A DNA stretch of 64,000 nucleotides, taken from positions 1-64,000 of the IMG/VR virus record IMGVR_UViG_3300038974_000542. The stretch is one strand, 5' to 3'. Below, in pieces: positions 528-64,000 of the stretch. The stretch comes from a virus (lineage: Duplodnaviria > Caudoviricetes). Position 1 is the stretch's first letter; every line of letters begins with the position of its first letter. The translations under genes and the position numbers were made by a program. Under the pieces are notes generated by a model. The model was given only the letters and a program-made list of their open reading frames with translations, did not search any database and was not told where the DNA came from.

Positions 528-918
528 AGTTTTCTTAGGCTTAACCCTGTCCTATCAGGGCATTAAGTTAAACTTGATAGATCACCTACACAAATATCAA
601 GTTCAGGTTTGTTGAATATTCTAAGGACAAGTGAGGGCTTGACACTGAGGATGTGTGTCAGAGAAAGAACACACCTTCAGAGGAAGAAGCTTCACCTTCC
701 TTAGAGAAACAACATACCTTATAATATTATCCCCGCCAGAAAATCTGACTTTTCAGTCAATGGGGGGAGGGTATTTTGTTTCCTGAAAACAGGTGGGGGG
801 TTGACAGGGGGACAAAAACACTCTCACATCACCCCCAACTTTTTAAAATTTCCCCAAAAATTTTTTCAAAAACCCACAAAATTATACTTAAATATTTTTC
901 ATATTAAAATTAAAGTGC

Positions 919-926
919 TACATTTG
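919..926 (+). promoter_or_regulatory. Bacteroidota housekeeping-sigma -7 element (TAnnTTTG)
   Basis: TACATTTG 32 nt upstream of the ATG at 959. Confidence 0.65.
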
Positions 927-958
927 CAAGACAAAAGTTTTATATTAATATAAATAGT

Positions 959-1321
959 ATGGGAGTAATAAAAAAAGTTCTCTTAGTACCAAGAGAGAAG
1001 TATTTTATACAGCATTTATCCATTATAAACTCTATGTTGCCTGTAACACTTACTCCAAAAGAGATTGAAGTACTTGGGTCATTTATGTCTCTTACAGGTG
1101 ATATAGCAGAACAAGATAGATTTGGTACAACTTCCAGAAAGATAGTTAAGGAAAGACTTAACCTTTCTGATGGTGGAATAGGTAACTATATAAAGTCTTT
1201 AAAAGAAAAAGGTTTTATATATACAGGTGAAGATGGGAACTTAAGAGTACAAGAGGTACTTGAAGCTGACAAGAATAATCAGAGTTATTTATTTAAAATT
1301 GTAGAAGATGGAAACAGTTGA
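959..1321 (+). CDS. Winged helix-turn-helix DNA-binding protein
   Basis: LTPKEIEVL...IVKERLNLSDGGIGNYIKSLKEKGFI matches a MarR-like wHTH pattern. Confidence 0.7.
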   Translation: MGVIKKVLLVPREKYFIQHLSIINSMLPVTLTPKEIEVLGSFMSLTGDIAEQDRFGTTSRKIVKERLNLSDGGIGNYIKSLKEKGFIYTGEDGNLRVQEVLEADKNNQSYLFKIVEDGNS

Positions 1322-1393
1322 TATTATAAAACAAGATTCAGAAACCTAATAAAAAAATTCCTGCATACATGAAGAATTAAATATAGAGAAGAT

Positions 1394-1717
1394 ATGAGAT
1401 ACTCTGCTGATGAAATATTTAGGGATTTTGTAAAGGAAGGTCTGCCTGAAGAATATAAGGATATTCCAATAGATACTTTAAAAGATGTTTGTTATACACC
1501 TTTCCTCTTCTTAAGAAGAATAATGGATTCTTATGTACTTACGGAAGTTAGATTTAAATATTTTGGAGTTTTCCTGGTATCCCCTAAGAAATGTAAAACG
1601 CTACTTGAAAGAGCAGAATTTAGACTTGCCAAAGGATACATAACTGAAGAGGAGTACTATAAGACAAAAACAATGGTTGAAAATTATTTTGAATCAATTA
1701 GAAAAAATGAAGAGTAA
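1394..1717 (+). CDS. HU/IHF-like DNA-binding protein
   Basis: EVRFKYFGVFLV resembles the HU/IHF V-x-L-x-x-FG-x-F motif; such genes are typical of crAss-like head modules. Confidence 0.65.
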   Translation: MRYSADEIFRDFVKEGLPEEYKDIPIDTLKDVCYTPFLFLRRIMDSYVLTEVRFKYFGVFLVSPKKCKTLLERAEFRLAKGYITEEEYYKTKTMVENYFESIRKNEE

Positions 1718-1994
1718 AATAACTGTAAAGAATATAATATCTTATGTTCAAGGTAATGTAAGATATAAATTGTATTATAGTAGATTTAGATTTTTAATTA
1801 GAGAACATATTAGAGAGCAGTATGAATACAGGATTAGAGTGATGAAGAAAGAATGCTATGAGTCTGGTAACTGTGTAATATGTGGCTGTAAGACAACAAA
1901 TCTGCAATTTGCAAATAAGTCTTGTGATGGGAATTGTTACCCGAGAATGATGAGTAAGAAGGAATGGAATAAATCTTTTCTACGTTATGAGTAA
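1677..1994 (+). CDS. Cys-rich putative Zn-finger protein
   Basis: CYESGNCVICGC...KSCDGNCYP; the true start may be the internal Met (MKSKITV). Confidence 0.65.
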   Translation: MKIILNQLEKMKSKITVKNIISYVQGNVRYKLYYSRFRFLIREHIREQYEYRIRVMKKECYESGNCVICGCKTTNLQFANKSCDGNCYPRMMSKKEWNKSFLRYE

Positions 1995-2283
1995 CTTTGA
2001 GAAAAATATTATAGATCTTGGTGAGGTACTTGAAAAAACTACTATAAAAGCAGATTTTAAAGTAGTCTCTAATAGGGATATTATCAAAGTTGAAACTTCC
2101 TGTGGTTGTACACCTGCAACATTTAATAAAAAGAATGTAATAATCAGTTATAGAACAGGATATATTCCTGTACATTTACAATCAATTGGTAAATCGGAGA
2201 TTGCTAAATTTGCAGATGTATTTTTTAATGATCTTACTTCAGAGAGAATCTATTTAAAAGCAACTTTAATTAAAAGAAGATGA
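1987..2283 (+). CDS. DUF1573-like Ig-fold protein
   Basis: IIKVETSCGCTPA motif characteristic of Bacteroidota DUF1573. Confidence 0.65.
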   Translation: MSNFEKNIIDLGEVLEKTTIKADFKVVSNRDIIKVETSCGCTPATFNKKNVIISYRTGYIPVHLQSIGKSEIAKFADVFFNDLTSERIYLKATLIKRR

Positions 2284-2876
2284 TTAATAGAAAAAAATTT
2301 TATGACTGTATAAGAGAGGAATTATTTAATGGAAGACTTTCACAACTTCAAGTAGATGGTATAGAGGCTATTCTCAATAAATGGGAAAAGTCTGGATATA
2401 CAGATATTAGATGGTTGGCTTATATGTTAGGTACAACATACCATGAGACTAACAAGGTAATGTATCCTATTGAAGAATATGGGAAAGGAAGAGGGAAAAG
2501 ATATGGTACTAAAACAAGGTATGATGGTCAAAAATACTTTTATCCAGATAAATTATACTATGGACGTGGTCAAATACAACTTACATATTATGATAATTAT
2601 CTTCTAATGGGCAAGTTATTGAATCTCCCATTACTTGAACAACCTGAGTTAGCTCTTGTTCCTGAAATTTCTGCTGACATAATGTTTGAAGGTATGACAA
2701 GAGGAATATCTAATAGAGGAGATTTCACTGGTGTTTCTTTAGAAAAGTTTTTTAATGACAATACGGAGGATTGGATAAATGCTCGTAAGGTTATTAATGG
2801 TCTTGATAAAGCAGAAGTTATAGCTTCTTATGGAAAAAGATTTTTAAAATGTTTACAACATGGCATATCTATTTAA
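2280..2876 (+). CDS. Endolysin, glycoside hydrolase family 19 (lysozyme/chitinase-like)
   Basis: WLAYMLGTTYHET, IEEYGKG, YYGRGQIQLT, NARKVING motifs. Confidence 0.88.
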   Translation: MINRKKFYDCIREELFNGRLSQLQVDGIEAILNKWEKSGYTDIRWLAYMLGTTYHETNKVMYPIEEYGKGRGKRYGTKTRYDGQKYFYPDKLYYGRGQIQLTYYDNYLLMGKLLNLPLLEQPELALVPEISADIMFEGMTRGISNRGDFTGVSLEKFFNDNTEDWINARKVINGLDKAEVIASYGKRFLKCLQHGISI

Positions 2877-3450
2877 AGTGGAAGATGGGGTAGTTAAACC
2901 TACTGATGAAGCATTACAGGTTTCACCTTTTAGTGATATATGGAATAGAGATAATTCTCCACATAAGGAAGTAGCTCTACAAGAATTTACTTACATTGAG
3001 TTTATGACATCAGCTTTAAAGACTAATCCTTATAGAAATTATAATAAAGATAGAAAAGAAGAAGTTATAAGAGAGAATGTATTTAAAAATAATCCTACTT
3101 GGAGACCTGATAATTTAATTCAGGAAGGTATAAACAAAGTAATAGAATTACAAACTGAAGGTTCTGATAAATACACATTATACCTTTCAGCTATTAATGC
3201 AAAGAATAAGTTACAAGATTTCTTTAATACCTTTAATATGAATAAGGTTAATAAAAAAACAGGTGCTCCAATATTTAAACCTAAAGATATCACATCTGCT
3301 TTGCAAGATTTGGATAAAACTATCATATCTCTTGATAGTCTTGAGAAAAAGGTAGAAGAAGATTTATTCCAAAATGTAAAAATTAAGGGTCAGAAAGAGA
3401 TTAGTCCTTTTGCTGACCCAAATATTTTATTAGGAATTAAAAATAAGTAA
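2860..3450 (+). CDS. Hypothetical head-module protein (candidate terminase small subunit)
   Basis: 196-aa helical protein two genes upstream of TerL; the function is inferred from position only. Confidence 0.5.
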   Translation: MAYLFKVEDGVVKPTDEALQVSPFSDIWNRDNSPHKEVALQEFTYIEFMTSALKTNPYRNYNKDRKEEVIRENVFKNNPTWRPDNLIQEGINKVIELQTEGSDKYTLYLSAINAKNKLQDFFNTFNMNKVNKKTGAPIFKPKDITSALQDLDKTIISLDSLEKKVEEDLFQNVKIKGQKEISPFADPNILLGIKNK

Positions 3451-57396: not shown

Positions 57397-57557
57397 ACTT
57401 TATTCTTAATTTGATAAATACAAATGCTCTTTACTGGTTTAAACTTTGAATACCACATATATTTATTATTACCTTTATCAATAAATCTTAAACAACTCTT
57501 CTTTAAATGGCAGGTAGTATTTTCACACCTTGTACAATCATTAGACAAATCATTCAT
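57393..57557 (-). CDS. Small Cys-rich protein (54 aa), absent from the ORF track
   Basis: MNDLSNDCTRCENTTCHLKKSCLRF...KNKV*; ATGA overlaps with both neighbours. Confidence 0.75.
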   Translation of the reverse strand: MNDLSNDCTRCENTTCHLKKSCLRFIDKGNNKYMWYSKFKPVKSICIYQIKNKV

Positions 57558-57784
57558 ACCATTAAAACATATTTAATATCAACTTTGTATGAAGCAAAAT
57601 CATCAGGATCTTCTGAGAAGAAAACCATCTCAGCTCCCATATCTTCATAGGCCTTTTTAACTGCGAGATCTTCTACTTTTTTAAAAGAAAGGTCTTCTCC
57701 TTTTTCTCTTAGCTCTTCTTCTAAAGAGCTTGAAGTATACTCATATACTCTACTTAGAGTTACTCTTAGTATCTTGTCCATCAT
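57554..57784 (-). CDS. Hypothetical protein
   Basis: 76-aa ORF within a tightly packed operon. Confidence 0.6.
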   Translation of the reverse strand: MMDKILRVTLSRVYEYTSSSLEEELREKGEDLSFKKVEDLAVKKAYEDMGAEMVFFSEDPDDFASYKVDIKYVLMV

Positions 57785-58571
57785 ATAAAAATTCTTTAAC
57801 TTTTTCTAATAAAGATAGGATATCAGAGTCATTATTAATAATATAATCAAAATATTGATAATTATCTAAAGCTATTTCTGAAGGATGAATATCATTATCC
57901 TCAAATCCAGACCTATTAACTCTAATTACAATTCCACCTCTTTTCTTTATTGCTTTAACTTCATTAGGAAATCTTACATCTGGTATAATATAATTAGGTT
58001 GTCTTATACCATAAGAACCATCAGTTTTAGAGTTTAATTGTTTTATTAATTCATCAGAAGGATAATTAACAAATAAAGCATTAACCCAAATATTAGGATG
58101 TATAATATTTCTTCCACAATCAGTACCAAGAAGTTGAAGCAACAATCTGGGAGTAAGTTTTACTAGTTCATGCCCAAAGAAATTTTCAGGAGATTCATGA
58201 AGCTGTTTATAAACATCTAATTCTCCAGTAAAAGGAACTAATTCATAGTCATGATAGTAATATTTAGTATCTAGATAAACTTTCCAACACCACCATTCTT
58301 CAGGTAATTCTTTCTCCTTAAAATCTCTATCTTCAAGTTGCTCTCTTGTACAACCTAAAAGAATACAGACTATATCTTTAAGTTTATCTGCAAATCTTTT
58401 AATACAAAAAGAAGAATCAGTAACACTTTGTTTGTTTTCTTTTAAATATTGAAGAAATTCCATCTTTGGATAATAAGAAGAAGTAAGATACTGTATCATA
58501 TTAGCTACCAGGTCTTTACCCGAATTCTTATGTCCTGAAATGCCAATAAGATTATATTTAATCCCCTCCAT
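57750..58571 (-). CDS. Deoxynucleoside monophosphate kinase
   Basis: P-loop GISGHKNSGKD, FADKLK, PRLLLQLLGT, IIPDVRFPNE, HPSE. Confidence 0.9.
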   Translation of the reverse strand: MEGIKYNLIGISGHKNSGKDLVANMIQYLTSSYYPKMEFLQYLKENKQSVTDSSFCIKRFADKLKDIVCILLGCTREQLEDRDFKEKELPEEWWCWKVYLDTKYYYHDYELVPFTGELDVYKQLHESPENFFGHELVKLTPRLLLQLLGTDCGRNIIHPNIWVNALFVNYPSDELIKQLNSKTDGSYGIRQPNYIIPDVRFPNEVKAIKKRGGIVIRVNRSGFEDNDIHPSEIALDNYQYFDYIINNDSDILSLLEKVKEFLYDGQDTKSNSK

Positions 58572-58815
58572 TTTTGTATATTATTTTAGAGTCTTCATAT
58601 ACTTCAATAGTAGAATAACCATCATTCTCTTCCACAGATAAATGACTCTCTGTATCAAACATAGTTTCTTCTTCTTTAAAGCCTAAATTTTCATCAAAGA
58701 TACTATATATGTCTCCTTGTTTAATAAGATCAATTATTTCCTGCATATTTGCCTCATCTGAAAAATAAGCTCTATTCCAGACTTTTACCTTTATATCTAC
58801 AAAATTTTTCAACAT
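58558..58815 (-). CDS. Hypothetical acidic protein
   Basis: 85-aa ORF overlapping the next gene. Confidence 0.6.
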   Translation of the reverse strand: MLKNFVDIKVKVWNRAYFSDEANMQEIIDLIKQGDIYSIFDENLGFKEEETMFDTESHLSVEENDGYSTIEVYEDSKIIYKNGGD

Positions 58816-58894
58816 AATACTTAATATTTAATGTTTAAAAAAAGAAGGTTTTTCAGTATTATGGGTAACCTACAACCATTAGTGATTTACAATA

Positions 58895-59479
58895 CTAACT
58901 ATTAAAAATCTCTTCCTTTAAATTCATAGTATAAGGAAGTTCCAACTCTGAGTCTTCAAGATCTCTATCACTAAGATTTTTTAAATCAAAGATCTTCCTC
59001 AACTTATTAGTAAAATCAGGTAGTAGTAGTTTATTCTTAGTTAATACTTTGTACTCTTTACTGTCTTCTTTAAAGAGTTTCAAAATCTCTTCTTTTGTAA
59101 ACATTTCAGAGTATTTGCCTTCTAAAAATTTATCATAAGCATTTTTATATTTCTTAGGAAAATCAAGAATTATCATATGTCCTCTTCCTTCCATATCAGC
59201 TATATAATCATAGATATAATAGTCCTGATATCTTATCCAATATATAAAATCCTCTGATTTTCTCTTATTAGCAAAGGTATCTATAAGAATGAATATTGGT
59301 GACTTATTTCCTATAATAAAATTAGGATTTTCTTCAATAACTTTATCACCAATACCATAAGCTAATACAAACATTTCTTTAAATTTCACTTCAAAAATTC
59401 TGCTATAACCTTCTTTTAAACAAGGAGAAAGGTATTCTGAAGTTTTATTCTCATATTGTTCTCTATACTTAATAACCAT
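58895..59479 (-). CDS. Hypothetical protein
   Basis: 194-aa ORF coupled to the nuclease gene. Confidence 0.7.
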   Translation of the reverse strand: MVIKYREQYENKTSEYLSPCLKEGYSRIFEVKFKEMFVLAYGIGDKVIEENPNFIIGNKSPIFILIDTFANKRKSEDFIYWIRYQDYYIYDYIADMEGRGHMIILDFPKKYKNAYDKFLEGKYSEMFTKEEILKLFKEDSKEYKVLTKNKLLLPDFTNKLRKIFDLKNLSDRDLEDSELELPYTMNLKEEIFNS

Positions 59480-60536
59480 GAATCTTATCCCAATCTAGTA
59501 CTAAAACTCCATTACTATCATAGATTAGCTTTTCTTTTTGCCAACCTTGCTTTTGATAATAACTATAAAGCTCAAGTAATTGTCGGTATCCTAAGATTTC
59601 TTGTCTTACTACTCTACCATCTATTACAATTTCAGGTAATCCATTTCTACCAATCTCTAAAAATTCATCTGAAGACTCTAATAACAATGGTGTCCCTGTC
59701 TCTGTATAAGATTCTACTACAAATTTGAAATTTCTAATAGTATTCTCATTAACTTCAAAAGGTAGACTATTAGAGAGTAAAAGTCCATCAGTATAGTAAG
59801 AACCTTGGATGTCATATCTTCTTAATCTGGCATTATTATGAAAGTTAAGAACTTTATCCATAATAATTTTCAAATCAATAGGAATAACATCTTTCACAAT
59901 TCCATCTTCTTTCCTTACTATAACTATATCTAATAAACCTTTACAATCTATACCTTGATAACTCCAATATATAGGAAGCTGATAATAAATATCCCAATTT
60001 AGATTATTTGCATATTTCTCTCTTGCAAAGAAACTTTCTGTAGTCATATTTGTTCTAAGAGAGTCTACAATAGAAGTAATAATAGACAATTGTTCTTCTG
60101 AGATGACAACTTTATCAAGACTCTTCTGTAAAAACTCATAATAAGCAGCATTCTCTAAGACTTTATTAACTCTTGTAGCTATTTTCCAATTTGGTTGATA
60201 ACTAAAAGCTTCAATAACTTCTTCAAGTATTTGTTGATTATCTTCCAGTGGAAGCTGCTTATCCTGACTTCTGTCTAACACCTCTTGTAGTATAGAACAT
60301 AATAAATCTGATGGTTTTGGACAACTTGAGATATAAAACAATTCCTCAAAATCTCCCTCCTCACCAGTAAGTATTGTATCTACTGCACTCCCAATAATCA
60401 TTGGTTCTGTTATTTTTTCTTCCCTTTCACTAAGAAACTCTTTCATACCAGATAAAAGTTTCTTTAAGCTACTCTGATCGATAGCTGGGCTATCTCTATA
60501 CTCCTGTATCTTCTGTCTGTTTGTTATGTATAGCAT
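59469..60536 (-). CDS. PD-(D/E)XK exonuclease (ExoVIII/RecE-like)
   Basis: QSSLKKLL, IGSAVD, CKGLLDIV, IDLK, YDIQGSYY. Confidence 0.8.
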   Translation of the reverse strand: MLYITNRQKIQEYRDSPAIDQSSLKKLLSGMKEFLSEREEKITEPMIIGSAVDTILTGEEGDFEELFYISSCPKPSDLLCSILQEVLDRSQDKQLPLEDNQQILEEVIEAFSYQPNWKIATRVNKVLENAAYYEFLQKSLDKVVISEEQLSIITSIVDSLRTNMTTESFFAREKYANNLNWDIYYQLPIYWSYQGIDCKGLLDIVIVRKEDGIVKDVIPIDLKIIMDKVLNFHNNARLRRYDIQGSYYTDGLLLSNSLPFEVNENTIRNFKFVVESYTETGTPLLLESSDEFLEIGRNGLPEIVIDGRVVRQEILGYRQLLELYSYYQKQGWQKEKLIYDSNGVLVLDWDKIHGY

Positions 60537-61050
60537 CTTTTAATAAGATTAGGTTTTTAAAATTTTCAAAAGTTATACTCACTATTGTACTATATTCACT
60601 ATTATACATTCCTTTCCTTTGTTTATAAGTTTCATATCTTAGATCTGGACTAACTTCTTTAAATCTAAGATGTTGCCTATGAGTCATATATACAATGTCC
60701 TCATTTGTATTATTGCTAAAAGGATTTAATCTATGAATAAGTATAATGGGATATTTTCTAACTTCTGAATCTTCTGGGAATAAAGCTTTAATCTGATTTT
60801 CAATATCAAATAAAACTTTACCAGGAGACATGTTTTTTTGAGTCCCAGCTTTTATCTGAATATTATAAGGAATATTCATTAAATCTATTCCTGCATTATC
60901 ATAAATTCTACCACCTTGTCTTGAAGTTATACAATAATTATAACCTAAACTTCTAAAGAGTTTTGCATAAAACCTCTCAGCATGTGAACCTTTGTGTTTA
61001 TTTTTTGCTCCTACACTTCTTACTTTTTTACTTTGTTGTTCATTACTCAT
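60496..61050 (-). CDS. PD-(D/E)XK Holliday junction resolvase-like nuclease
   Basis: KHKGSHAERFYAKLFRSLGY...GIDL...IQIKAG. Confidence 0.75.
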   Translation of the reverse strand: MSNEQQSKKVRSVGAKNKHKGSHAERFYAKLFRSLGYNYCITSRQGGRIYDNAGIDLMNIPYNIQIKAGTQKNMSPGKVLFDIENQIKALFPEDSEVRKYPIILIHRLNPFSNNTNEDIVYMTHRQHLRFKEVSPDLRYETYKQRKGMYNSEYSTIVSITFENFKNLILLKDAIHNKQTEDTGV

Positions 61051-61053
61051 ACT

Positions 61054-61716
61054 CTATAAAATAGTATTCTTAAAAAAGTCAATAAAAGATTTCTTATCTT
61101 CTACTGTTTCCAAATTTAATGAACTTTCAAACTCATTTCCATACACCACTTTTTCAATACTTTCTGAACTCATAATGGATAACTCACAACCACTATCCAA
61201 ATAATCATCGAGAAAGGTTTCTTTGACCTTTTTATATACCTTCTTATAAGATTTTAATTCTGTAGAGATATATATTTTTTTATCTCTAATTGAGAGAGTA
61301 TCAAAACTAACTCTCCCCAACTCTACTACTGTCTTCAGAAAAGCTTCAGAACTTATTGCTGTTAGAAATAGTATTTTACCCCTTTCATCTAAAATAGTTC
61401 CAAAAGCTGCATATATTGTTTTTTCAACTTTATCTTCCTTGAAACTTATTTTTCCAAAATAACGAAAACCTGTAAGAAAATTTACAAGTTGAGTAAAATA
61501 CACATGATAACTAATATATAGACTATTATCTCTACTAAATAGACTTATCTTTGGATAGGCATACTTATAATCCTCTAAATAAATTGTATTATGAAGTAAA
61601 GCTAAAGGTATATATTTATTATAAGAAACAGTTGATAAACTATAGTTATCTACGGAAGTGAGACTACTACCAGGATCTCTGAAGAGTTTTTCTATAGGTT
61701 TCTCATATCTACTCAT
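61054..61716 (-). CDS. Hypothetical protein coupled to the ThiF/E1-like gene
   Basis: 220 aa; ATGA overlap with the stop of ThiF exon 2. Confidence 0.7.
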   Translation of the reverse strand: MSRYEKPIEKLFRDPGSSLTSVDNYSLSTVSYNKYIPLALLHNTIYLEDYKYAYPKISLFSRDNSLYISYHVYFTQLVNFLTGFRYFGKISFKEDKVEKTIYAAFGTILDERGKILFLTAISSEAFLKTVVELGRVSFDTLSIRDKKIYISTELKSYKKVYKKVKETFLDDYLDSGCELSIMSSESIEKVVYGNEFESSLNLETVEDKKSFIDFFKNTIL

Positions 61717-61976
61717 CTTGAAATCAAATTAAGTGGTGTAAAGACTTCGAATTTAAAAGGTACATCTCTTACATATTCCTTATATCGAATATTAGTAACA
61801 TGATTAGTAAACATGACAGTCATAAATGAGGCTATCATAGCTGCTACATGAGATGTTTGTTTCATTGTACAGGCAACATCTTCTACCTCAGAATCATCAA
61901 ATAAATATTTCTCTTCATATTCTTTAATTCTTTCTTTAGTAACACAAAATATTTGAAGCTGTTCGGATTCCAATCT
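61713..61976 (-). CDS. ThiF/E1-like enzyme, exon 2 (87 aa: RLESEQLQIF...ACTMKQTSH...)
   Basis: Continues IDG|RLESEQ in frame after intron removal; carries the candidate active-site Cys. Confidence 0.85.
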   Translation of the reverse strand, partial: RLESEQLQIFCVTKERIKEYEEKYLFDDSEVEDVACTMKQTSHVAAMIASFMTVMFTNHVTNIRYKEYVRDVPFKFEVFTPLNLISR

Positions 61977-62166
61977 CACATTACCCACTACTTTCATAAT
62001 GGTGTGGACTATATCTTTATCCAATTACTTGGATAGAGGACACTTTTTCACTTATATACTACTATAAGTTACTTCCTGTTATTAAGCAAACTTTATTGCT
62101 CAGGTAGTCTCTGAACCTTCATAAGGTGTACCTTATGCTTGGCTGCTGATTAGCATAGATTTCTCC

Positions 62167-62982
62167 TTAGCTTTCCAGCAATTCATCCTCTTCAGACAAA
62201 GTATTACTACTTTGAGGGGCAGTTTTAAGTGTAAAATTATTTTTACAGTCTTTGCATAATACTCTAGGTAATTTAATACCTTTGTAAATATAATTACCAT
62301 TGAATACTGTATTACTTGAATTACAAAACTTACAATTTGGGGTTACTCTTTGAATAAATAAATTAGAGTCTAATATCTTCTCAAATAAAATTCTCTTTCT
62401 TAATAAATATATTTCACAATCTTGATAAAGAAGATTATAAAATCTTTTATAACTAAGACTGAATATAGTTAATTTATAAACAGATTTTGCATCTGTAATA
62501 CTACAATCTATATTATTATCATTAAGAAAATCTCTTATCTCTTTAATAAAGATCAAAGAATTAGAGTAAATATAAACTCTCTTTTGCTCTTTTCTTGAAT
62601 TATTGATATAAGTACAACCCCCATCACCATCAAAAAAACCTCTAATAAAATGTCTTGTTAATTCATTTTTAAAAGGTATATGAAGGTTAGTTTTATTTTC
62701 AAAAGATTTATCTGGAAGACAACCATTAGATATAAAATGTTCTTTTAAAACTTTTAATCCAGAATATAAATAATGCATATTTTGTCTATTCCCAATATAT
62801 TCTACTATATAATATCTAAAGAAAGGAAATTTTTCTTTTAATAATAGAATTAAATCTTCATCTGTTAAACCTAATCTTATATGATGTTGATTCTTACTTA
62901 TATTCCCATCTGCATAAAATAATCCTAACAAATAAGCTTTGTTCTGATTATCGATACTTTGTAATTCATTATTATAATCCAT
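62167..62982 (-). CDS. Intron-encoded LAGLIDADG homing endonuclease with C-terminal Zn ribbon
   Basis: AYLLGLFYADG and HFIRGFFDGDG; CKFC...CKDC. Confidence 0.9.
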   Translation of the reverse strand: MDYNNELQSIDNQNKAYLLGLFYADGNISKNQHHIRLGLTDEDLILLLKEKFPFFRYYIVEYIGNRQNMHYLYSGLKVLKEHFISNGCLPDKSFENKTNLHIPFKNELTRHFIRGFFDGDGGCTYINNSRKEQKRVYIYSNSLIFIKEIRDFLNDNNIDCSITDAKSVYKLTIFSLSYKRFYNLLYQDCEIYLLRKRILFEKILDSNLFIQRVTPNCKFCNSSNTVFNGNYIYKGIKLPRVLCKDCKNNFTLKTAPQSSNTLSEEDELLES

Positions 62983-62999
62983 ATCCTTGTATTTTTGTA

Positions 63000-63007
63000 C
63001 AAAGATA
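63000..63007 (-). promoter_or_regulatory. TAnnTTTG -7 element inside the intron, upstream of the endonuclease
   Basis: TATCTTTG on the minus strand, 17 nt upstream of the ATG at 62982. Confidence 0.6.
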
Positions 63008-63029
63008 GTAAAAATTATTTTACTAACCT

Positions 63030-63650
63030 ACCATCAATAAATATAGGAACATTCTTTATAGTACTATTTTCATTACTTAACTCACAATCCTGAACATTTC
63101 TCTTCCAGACATTAAAGAAATTTTTTCTTGCTTCCATATTGTCAAAAGCTGAGAAGAAGTATGGTCCTAATATTTTTGTATTGGAATCAATTCTTTTAGT
63201 AATAGTATAAATAGTAGAGCTTGGAGAAAACTCTTTTACATTATGATAAACAGCAGTTGTTTTATACTCCCCTATATTAGAATTTTTAAAAAATTGACCA
63301 GACAAGTTTACCTTTTCAACCATATCAAAATCATAAATGCTAATAGTAAAACCAGCTCTTGCAAGAAATAAAGCTAAGTAACTACCAATTCCACCAGCAC
63401 CACCTATAATTAATGAATTATCAATAAAATCAAACCAGGGGAGACCTTTAAATCTAGTAAACTGTTCATCATTATTACTTGGTTCAAAGTCATCCTCTAT
63501 AATACTATTTTCTTCATCTTCTACTAAGGGTTCTTGAACTGTCTCATTGTTTTCTTCTTCAGTTTCTGGTTCTTCTACAGAAGAACTCCTTAGACTTTCA
63601 CCAAAGATTTCTTCAAACTCTCTTTCCAAATTATCAATTTCTCCACTCAT
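63030..63650 (-). CDS. ThiF/E1-like adenylyltransferase, exon 1 (207 aa)
   Basis: GGAGGIGS nucleotide-binding loop, YDFDMVEKVNLSGQ, AFDNMEARK, FIDG; acidic N-terminal extension. Confidence 0.88.
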
Positions 63651-64000
63651 TTTCTATTCCTATTAAAAAGTTAATAATATCCCCTAAGAATCCAAATTGT
63701 TTTCTATATTCTTGAAGCTTTTTCCTCATAATCTTTACTATAACAAAATCATCCATTGCAATACTTCTGAAATAAGTATCAAATTCATTTTGAAAATTAA
63801 CAATAAAATCCTCAAGGATCTCTGGAGGAGTGAACTCTCCACTTACAATAGATTCATCAATAGAACTAAGCACATCTTCTAGAGATAACTCAAAGAAATC
63901 ATCATAGTCAAAACAAACTTTAATGAAGTCCTCACAGTTACTCTCAACAAATATTGAGAAATCTTCCTCAGATGTTTTACTTTTTGGCTTTTTTTTATTC
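63634..64000 (-). CDS. C-terminal part of a protein running off the window edge
   Basis: The frame of the 63634-63873 ORF stays open from 63999 (NKKKPKSKTSEEDFSIFVESNCEDF...), so the listed start is internal. Confidence 0.75.
   Translation of the reverse strand, partial: NKKKPKSKTSEEDFSIFVESNCEDFIKVCFDYDDFFELSLEDVLSSIDESIVSGEFTPPEILEDFIVNFQNEFDTYFRSIAMDDFVIVKIMRKKLQEYRKQFGFLGDIINFLIGIENEWRN

Follow-up and report, generated by a model that had tools for sequence, protein, structure and literature searches.

A predicted mobile group I intron with a LAGLIDADG endonuclease gene in its P1 loop interrupts the E1/ThiF-like gene of a crAss-like phage

Results

An E1/ThiF-like gene interrupted by a group I intron

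The window, which is the whole stretch of 64,000 nt that was analysed (positions 1 to 64,000 of IMG/VR virus record IMGVR_UViG_3300038974_000542), comes from a crAss-like sludge phage and carries a group I intron in an E1/ThiF-like gene. The genes and boundaries of the locus are as follows.

63030-63650, minus strand: E1/ThiF-like exon 1; 207 codons with GxGxxG and FDNM..AR, ending ...IDG (ORF list; Pfam ThiF, 2e-16; colinear with FpV4 ThiF)
61977-63029, minus strand: group I intron; 1053 nt, phase 0, between the invariant G207 and R208
62167-62982, minus strand: predicted LAGLIDADG homing endonuclease ORF; 271 aa with CxxC...CxxC (Pfam LAGLIDADG_3, PF14528, 5.9e-13; phrog_4645, 5e-31)
61977, minus strand: terminal G (omega G) at the 3' splice site; junction fixed by intron-less alleles
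61713-61976, minus strand: E1/ThiF-like exon 2; 87 codons plus stop, with the invariant C243 in CTMKQTSH

The exon 1 ORF starts at 63650, encodes a ThiF-type Rossmann domain and runs to ...PIFIDG, after which it reads RLVK and meets a stop five codons on. Exon 1 ends with ...ATT GAT GGT at 63030, and exon 2 begins with AGA TTG GAA at 61976, its frame continuing to 61713 as RLESEQLQIFCVT... The insert between them, read from 63029 to 61977, is preceded by U, starts with A and ends with G. Both exon lengths are multiples of three and the join reads ...PIFIDG/RLESEQLQIF.... Joining GGT to AGA gives a 294-aa protein that aligns without a gap across IDG/RLE with the uninterrupted ThiF of Flavobacterium phage FpV4 (52% identity) and equals the database protein P0001 (294 aa) except for S22N. 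The 90% cluster of P0001 holds six uninterrupted 294-aa variants, on contigs of up to 63 kb, and four split 211-aa variants with 94-aa exon-2 ORFs, on contigs of 82,673 and 84,003 nt; gene callers thus report the E1 as two 'hypothetical' ORFs of 211 and 94 aa. The original prediction had placed the intron at 61977-63029, and these coordinates (minus strand) and the junction proved exact, as the join restores the frame and fits both FpV4 ThiF and the intron-less alleles. Such alleles, which that prediction had proposed to look for, were found in the P0001 cluster and in contigs of a DNA run (X3, below).

The host protein is a true E1-superfamily adenylation domain, of the Rossmann type with a glycine-rich loop and the conserved Asp in DN..AR. 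In an alignment of 34 homologues, GGAGGIGS and FDNMEAR were invariant or nearly so, and D206, G207, R208 and L209 around the insertion site and C243 in exon 2 were invariant. The AF2 model of the joined protein (pLDDT 82) had UBA5, ThiF, MoeB and MccB as its top Foldseek matches, with E values of 1e-11 to 1e-10 for the first three. As the insertion site lies in a core beta strand of the model and the whole chain matches these E1 folds, both exons are needed for one domain. It is a reasonable inference from the invariant residues in both exons that the enzyme matters to the phage.

The first 60 or so residues of the E1 (63470-63650) form an acidic N-terminal extension of low model confidence, which neither the FpV4 nor the crAss001-type homologues have; P0002-P0004, the closest relatives, carry different long extensions. 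Three genes follow the E1 at 59469-61716 on the minus strand: a 220-aa gene with no assigned function, the start of which overlaps the E1 stop, a RusA-like resolvase (phrog_15993, phrog_244) and an exonuclease VIII/PDDEXK-like gene (phrog_412). On the upstream side, the genes of 384, 371 and 175 aa in L146 (G000:C1:63000-69000; 638-3449, minus strand) had no Pfam or PADLOC match, and the PHROGs that they matched all lack an assigned function; further upstream are a UDG-like gene and a primase.

The ribozyme core and its guide sequence

A targeted cmscan of 61600-63300 matched RF00028 (Intron_gpI) at 62248-61985 over the full model (1-253/253) with 81.8 bits (E 7.8e-21), about 32 bits above the curated threshold of 50 bits. 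This Infernal check, which had been suggested together with the prediction, bears out a group I intron. The core was not reported by whole-window scans in either 'gathering' or 'evalue' mode, nor by a scan of the whole 84-kb record. Because the targeted scan scores far over the threshold, we attribute the misses in large scans to speed filters. Helices P2 to P9, including P7.1 and P7.2, could all be traced and were checked base by base.

63028-63032, minus strand: P1 5' strand, GGU/AG, with U63030 just before the 5' splice site; paired in the MFE fold of the ORF-less intron
63006-63025, minus strand: upstream L1 hairpin copy (UAGUAAAA with UUUUACUA), holding the 11-nt direct repeat 63011-63021
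62231-62246, minus strand: downstream L1 hairpin copy, holding the 11-nt direct repeat 62233-62243
62218-62222, minus strand: internal guide sequence (IGS) CUGCC, P1 3' strand; conserved as ACUGCCCC in L268 and L269
62198-62213, minus strand: P2 hairpin, AAAGUA-GUAA-UACUUU
62184-62191 with 62035-62042, minus strand: P3, 8 bp; encloses P4, P5, P6-P6a, the P7 5' strand, P7.1 and P7.2
62175-62180 with 62144-62149, minus strand: P4
62168-62171 with 62153-62157, minus strand: P5
62115-62143, minus strand: P6-P6a
62105-62109 (5' strand) with 62007-62011 (3' strand), minus strand: P7, 5 bp
62075-62104, minus strand: P7.1 hairpin
62050-62069, minus strand: P7.2 hairpin
62019-62034, minus strand: P8
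62012-62018, minus strand: J8/7
61985-62002, minus strand: P9, GAAA loop

The P3/P7 pseudoknot is present with its J6/7 and J8/7 joiners (UUCAGA-GACUA and AAAGAUA-UAGUC). Since the predicted P7.1 and P7.2 lie between P7 and P3', the intron is assigned to the IA type.

The guide CUGCC lies 4 nt 5' of P2 and pairs with GGU/AG, with a U.G pair at the splice site. This pairing had been proposed for 62218-62222, and both the sequence and the fold of the ORF-less form agree with it. P1 consists of 5 bp and a 2-bp extension (UU/AA after a mismatch), with its strands about 800 nt apart in the full intron. The start of exon 2 (AGAUU) resembles the start of the intron (AGGUU), so that a short P10 with the guide bases of P1 is possible, though a weak one (AG + UU). 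A 5-bp guide pairing is not unique in itself, as 16 G positions in the intron give at least 5 contiguous pairs; CUGCC was assigned as the guide because it is directly 5' of P2 and because of the natural ORF-less variant.

The endonuclease ORF in loop L1

The ORF between the 5' splice site and the guide, that is in L1, has an intact frame without an internal stop and both motifs of the family, LLGLFYADG at residue 18 and IRGFFDGDG at residue 113, with both acidic residues present. Its product is a predicted single-chain LAGLIDADG homing endonuclease. The claim that the ORF sits in L1 and overlaps the core with its 3' end also held, since the last 21 codons (251-271) and the stop of the ORF (62982-62167) are ribozyme sequence: with no stop of its own, the endonuclease cassette reads through the IGS, P2, P3 and P4 to a UAA in P5.

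Homologues of the endonuclease fall into at least 238 clusters at E <= 1e-10 in the protein database. The tail ...TAP.SSN..SGE.ELLE. before the stop, which is the translation of IGS-P2-P3-P4-P5 (62167-62232), is the C-terminus of most of the best 120 homologue clusters, and the overlap between ORF and ribozyme is therefore old and shared. Among the endonuclease proteins P0160-P0239, one subclade carries SAS instead of TAP; this implies a different guide sequence and perhaps a different target site. The length of the tail on an endonuclease tree was also considered as a marker of core type and was rejected as not diagnostic, since a stop in P2 suffices for a short tail.

The nearest named endonucleases are those of Staphylococcus Twort/K-like phages (I-MsaII and relatives) and of Bacillus phage 0305phi8-36, with 25-33% identity over about 200 residues. 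They belong to the same PHROG family, but the relationship is distant; they lack the C-terminal CxxC...CxxC part and the ribozyme-encoded tail, and their host genes encode a recombinase or polymerase, in contrast to the E1-like enzyme here.

Three states of the site in public DNA

Logan contigs from four runs (X1-X4) were aligned to 61500-63800; run X1 is possibly the sample from which the window came, and does not count as independent. The E1 site occurred in the public DNA contigs in three states: empty, with an ORF-less intron of about 275 nt, and with the full intron. The intron is thus optional among near-identical phages.

For the empty site, contigs of X3 (sludge, DNA) join 61976 to 63031. 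Exon 1 of this empty allele ends in GGC and not GGT, a synonymous difference by which the U.G pair loses its U. The same run holds a second, more diverged empty-site haplotype, and an AGG variant was also seen in it. The allele with GGC is the commonest intron-less allele in X3 and X4. A 9.6-kb contig from the RNA library X4, also joined 61976 to 63031, was considered as spliced RNA and rejected, as GGC and about 2% differences identify it as coming from intron-less strains; it is the sole joined form in an RNA library. At position -1, the 50 distinct sites compared in uninterrupted relatives have T (34 sites), A (9), C (4) or G (3). The DNA flanking the empty site is conserved, with 23-26 of 30 nt shared in the closest uninterrupted relatives (consensus ATATTTATTGATGGT before and AGATTAGAA after the site), which would suit a homing target.

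The ORF-less form was found on a 320-nt X3 contig, in which a 275-nt intron is flanked by 15 nt from exon 1 and 30 nt from exon 2. This intron is joined from 62232 to 63011, with 778 nt missing, and the ends of the missing segment are an 11-nt direct repeat, AAAAUAAUUUU (63021-63011 and 62243-62233), each copy of which lies in a small hairpin. Folded in silico, this form gave P1 (GGUAG with CUGCC) and a hairpin extension, followed by P2-P9. In run X2 (wastewater, from another study), pieces of the core and of the endonuclease were present at about the depth of the exon contigs, and no X2 contig bridged a splice site by at least 31 nt; an X2 joint of 62300 to 62735 has only 21 letters on its shorter side and is weak.

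Just upstream of the insertion (about 63050-63090, E1 residues 188-200), the intron-bearing P0123 and P0128 have 8-9 substitutions, which may be a co-conversion tract from a diverged donor. In the same residues, the intron-bearing allele of the window matches intron-less alleles.

The ORF-less form also bears indirectly on whether the ribozyme acts alone. With an 800-nt ORF parting the P1 strands, it could need its own LAGLIDADG protein as a maturase, or a host factor. P1 is indeed long-range in the full form, and some LAGLIDADG proteins of organellar introns act as maturases. The legend of Fig. 3 in Yutin et al. 2021 (PMC7886860), on crAss-like phages, likewise labels LAGLIDADG as an intron-encoded endonuclease maturase. 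However, a natural variant without the ORF exists and folds alone in silico. Phage IA introns also generally self-splice. Dependence on a protein is rather unlikely, and guanosine-dependent self-splicing is predicted from the sequence.

Homologous introns at the same site in other phages

Three IMG/VR contigs (L268, L269 and L270) carry a homologous endonuclease (43-46% identical) flanked by exons of an E1 that is about 40% identical. The introns are 1107 nt in L268 (2428-3534), at IDG/RLS, and 1120 nt in L269 (2430-3549), at LDG/RLS, and the joined E1 of both contigs is colinear with the window E1 and FpV4 ThiF. Both introns keep ACUGCCCC and P2. RF00028 gave no match to either, even in a targeted 341-nt scan, and this intron lineage is beyond the reach of the Rfam model. 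Their J6/7-P7, P3', P8, J8/7-P7' and P9 align with those of the window and the helices covary, as in P7 of L269 (GAGUAU/GUACUC), with 12 compensatory pairs between L268 and L269. Because of this alignment and covariation, the two introns are diverged homologues and not a different element. The same aligned, covarying segments ruled out a swap of the core, in which the endonuclease and IGS would have formed a specificity cassette on an unrelated core.

Split E1 ORFs were also present in the protein database, ending in IDGRLVK, IDGRLT, IDGRLLN, IDGRM and IDGRIKC before the stop (P0024, P0047, P0146, P0148, P0151, P0158), and the exon-2 ORFs P0141 and P0155 begin with translated P7-P9 sequence. 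The lineages of the split ORFs are 35-75% identical to FpV4 ThiF. For three short E1 ORFs, the longest contigs are equally long as those of an endonuclease homologue, and the pairing of the two rests on this.

The filled site is in the minority, as about 170 other homologues examined were uninterrupted. Among the E1 loci in IMG/VR, both halves were contiguous in 112 of 112, outside which three further loci end at a contig end, without exon 2. In GenBank, the 60 records listed of 74 matching were all uninterrupted, including crAss001, DAC15/17 and the FpV4 group. Exact-pattern scans for the 5' junction in viral and metagenome contigs found none, and no related locus was found with the exon 1 protein alone. 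At least 120 metagenome loci contained a P7-P9 17-mer; E1 exons were absent from all of them, and no core sequence among them was close to that of the window. No second intron was found in this genome by pattern scans and a targeted cmscan of 57400-59400.

The rarity of the filled site could fit a dead relic, in which a group I-derived insert no longer splices and the E1 is a pseudogene in this phage. Intron-less alleles also dominate the runs examined, P1 and P10 are short, and the splicing of the intron is predicted from sequence. However, the core helices are all intact with the U.G pair and the terminal G in place, the score is 32 bits above the Rfam threshold, and the insert has an exact junction in phase 0, with exons that are one residue off intact alleles and keep every invariant position. 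A relic is therefore very unlikely.

As the record is a metagenome-assembled virus, the insert could also be a chimeric join of unrelated reads. Against this, two long contigs (82,673 and 84,003 nt) encode the 211-aa and 94-aa halves of the split gene, X2 holds intron pieces from another study, an X3 contig spans exon, intron and exon in the ORF-less form, and the three IMG/VR contigs have homologous introns at the site. We regard the probability of such an artefact as close to nil.

Discussion

The locus is best explained by a mobile group I intron of the IA type, with a LAGLIDADG endonuclease gene in L1, lying in phase 0 in the E1 gene of a crAss-like phage and predicted to splice and to home. 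We put the probability of this reading at roughly 90%. In it, the guide CUGCC would pair with GGU at the end of the exon and AG at the start of the intron, placing the U.G pair at the cleavage site, the P3-P9 core would fold and a guanosine would attack after U63030. The exons would then be ligated after G61977, giving an mRNA for the 294-aa E1.

For mobility, the LAGLIDADG endonuclease would cut intron-less E1 alleles during co-infection, and repair would copy the intron in. The activity of the endonuclease, its target and homing itself are predictions; cleavage of the intron-less allele has indirect support from the presence/absence polymorphism and the conserved DNA around the site. Homing would explain the presence of empty, ORF-less and full states in near-identical phages and of homologous introns at the same site in diverged phages. 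The endonuclease gene itself probably entered the P1 loop as a unit, as a 778-nt insert between the 11-nt direct repeats. ORFs in P1 loops are known from other introns.

Another explanation is that the intron is an old resident of the E1, co-diverging with it across a crAss-like branch, and acts as a gate, with endonuclease synthesis and maturation of the E1 mRNA being mutually exclusive and timed within infection. As the endonuclease frame passes through the IGS, P2, P3 and P4, translating ribosomes would in this case have to unfold the ribozyme. We consider this reading unlikely.

The td, nrdB and nrdD (sunY) introns of T4 are the classical phage IA2 introns with homing endonucleases. The intron described here is like them in having an IA core with P7.1 and P7.2, a site in a conserved catalytic-domain motif, optional presence in close relatives and, by prediction, endonuclease-driven mobility. 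It differs in that the T4 endonucleases are GIY-YIG or HNH enzymes in other loops, whereas a LAGLIDADG enzyme is found in L1 here, and in that the T4 host genes belong to nucleotide metabolism. In the homing cycle that Goddard and Burt are said to have proposed, invasion is followed by loss of the endonuclease and then of the intron. All three site states of such a cycle were seen in the public DNA contigs.

The closest relative of the core is in the crAss-like phage cr116_1 (MT774389), of the same phage order, where an intron in a rIIA-like gene has a core 84% identical over about 190 nt. The layout is also the same, with an ORF that precedes the core and extends across a guide sequence fitting the exon of that intron, but the host gene is rIIA-like and not an E1, and a tblastn search with the window endonuclease did not list that of cr116_1 among its matches. 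At this locus (L082, 2470-3500, minus strand), GenBank annotates a split 'protector from prophage-induced early lysis'/rIIA-like gene and an 'endonuclease', without an intron; GUGGGU/U pairs there with GCUCAC upstream of P3. A more distant core is that of the PolB intron in Cellulophaga phage phi14:2, where the CDS is annotated as joined, and further distant core relatives are the terminase-gene introns of Vibrio phages and the psbA intron of S-PM2.

The host gene had been called unusual, and this can be kept in part. A literature search found no paper linking a group I intron to a ThiF/E1 gene. However, homologous introns occupy the site in several diverged phages, and group I introns are well known in crAss-like phages, where those with LAGLIDADG genes have been described in MCP, PolB, primase, ATP_43b and RNAP genes in a paper that does not mention ThiF or ubiquitin (Yutin et al. 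2021, PMC7886860). The E1/ThiF type is therefore a new host gene for phage homing introns, and the element is an ordinary kind of selfish element whose mechanism is already known.

The practical value of the finding is in annotation, as the E1 is split by gene callers and the intron is missed by routine genome-scale Rfam scans, and RF00028 does not detect the diverged introns of L268 and L269 even in targeted scans. Because of such split calls and missed introns, the conserved E1-like gene will seem to be missing or disrupted in some genomes of crAss-like phages. With an E1/ThiF-type enzyme joining the phage genes that host homing introns, the natural series of empty, ORF-less and ORF-bearing sites and diverged homologues suits the study of how an endonuclease cassette may enter a P1 loop and come to share its codons with the ribozyme.
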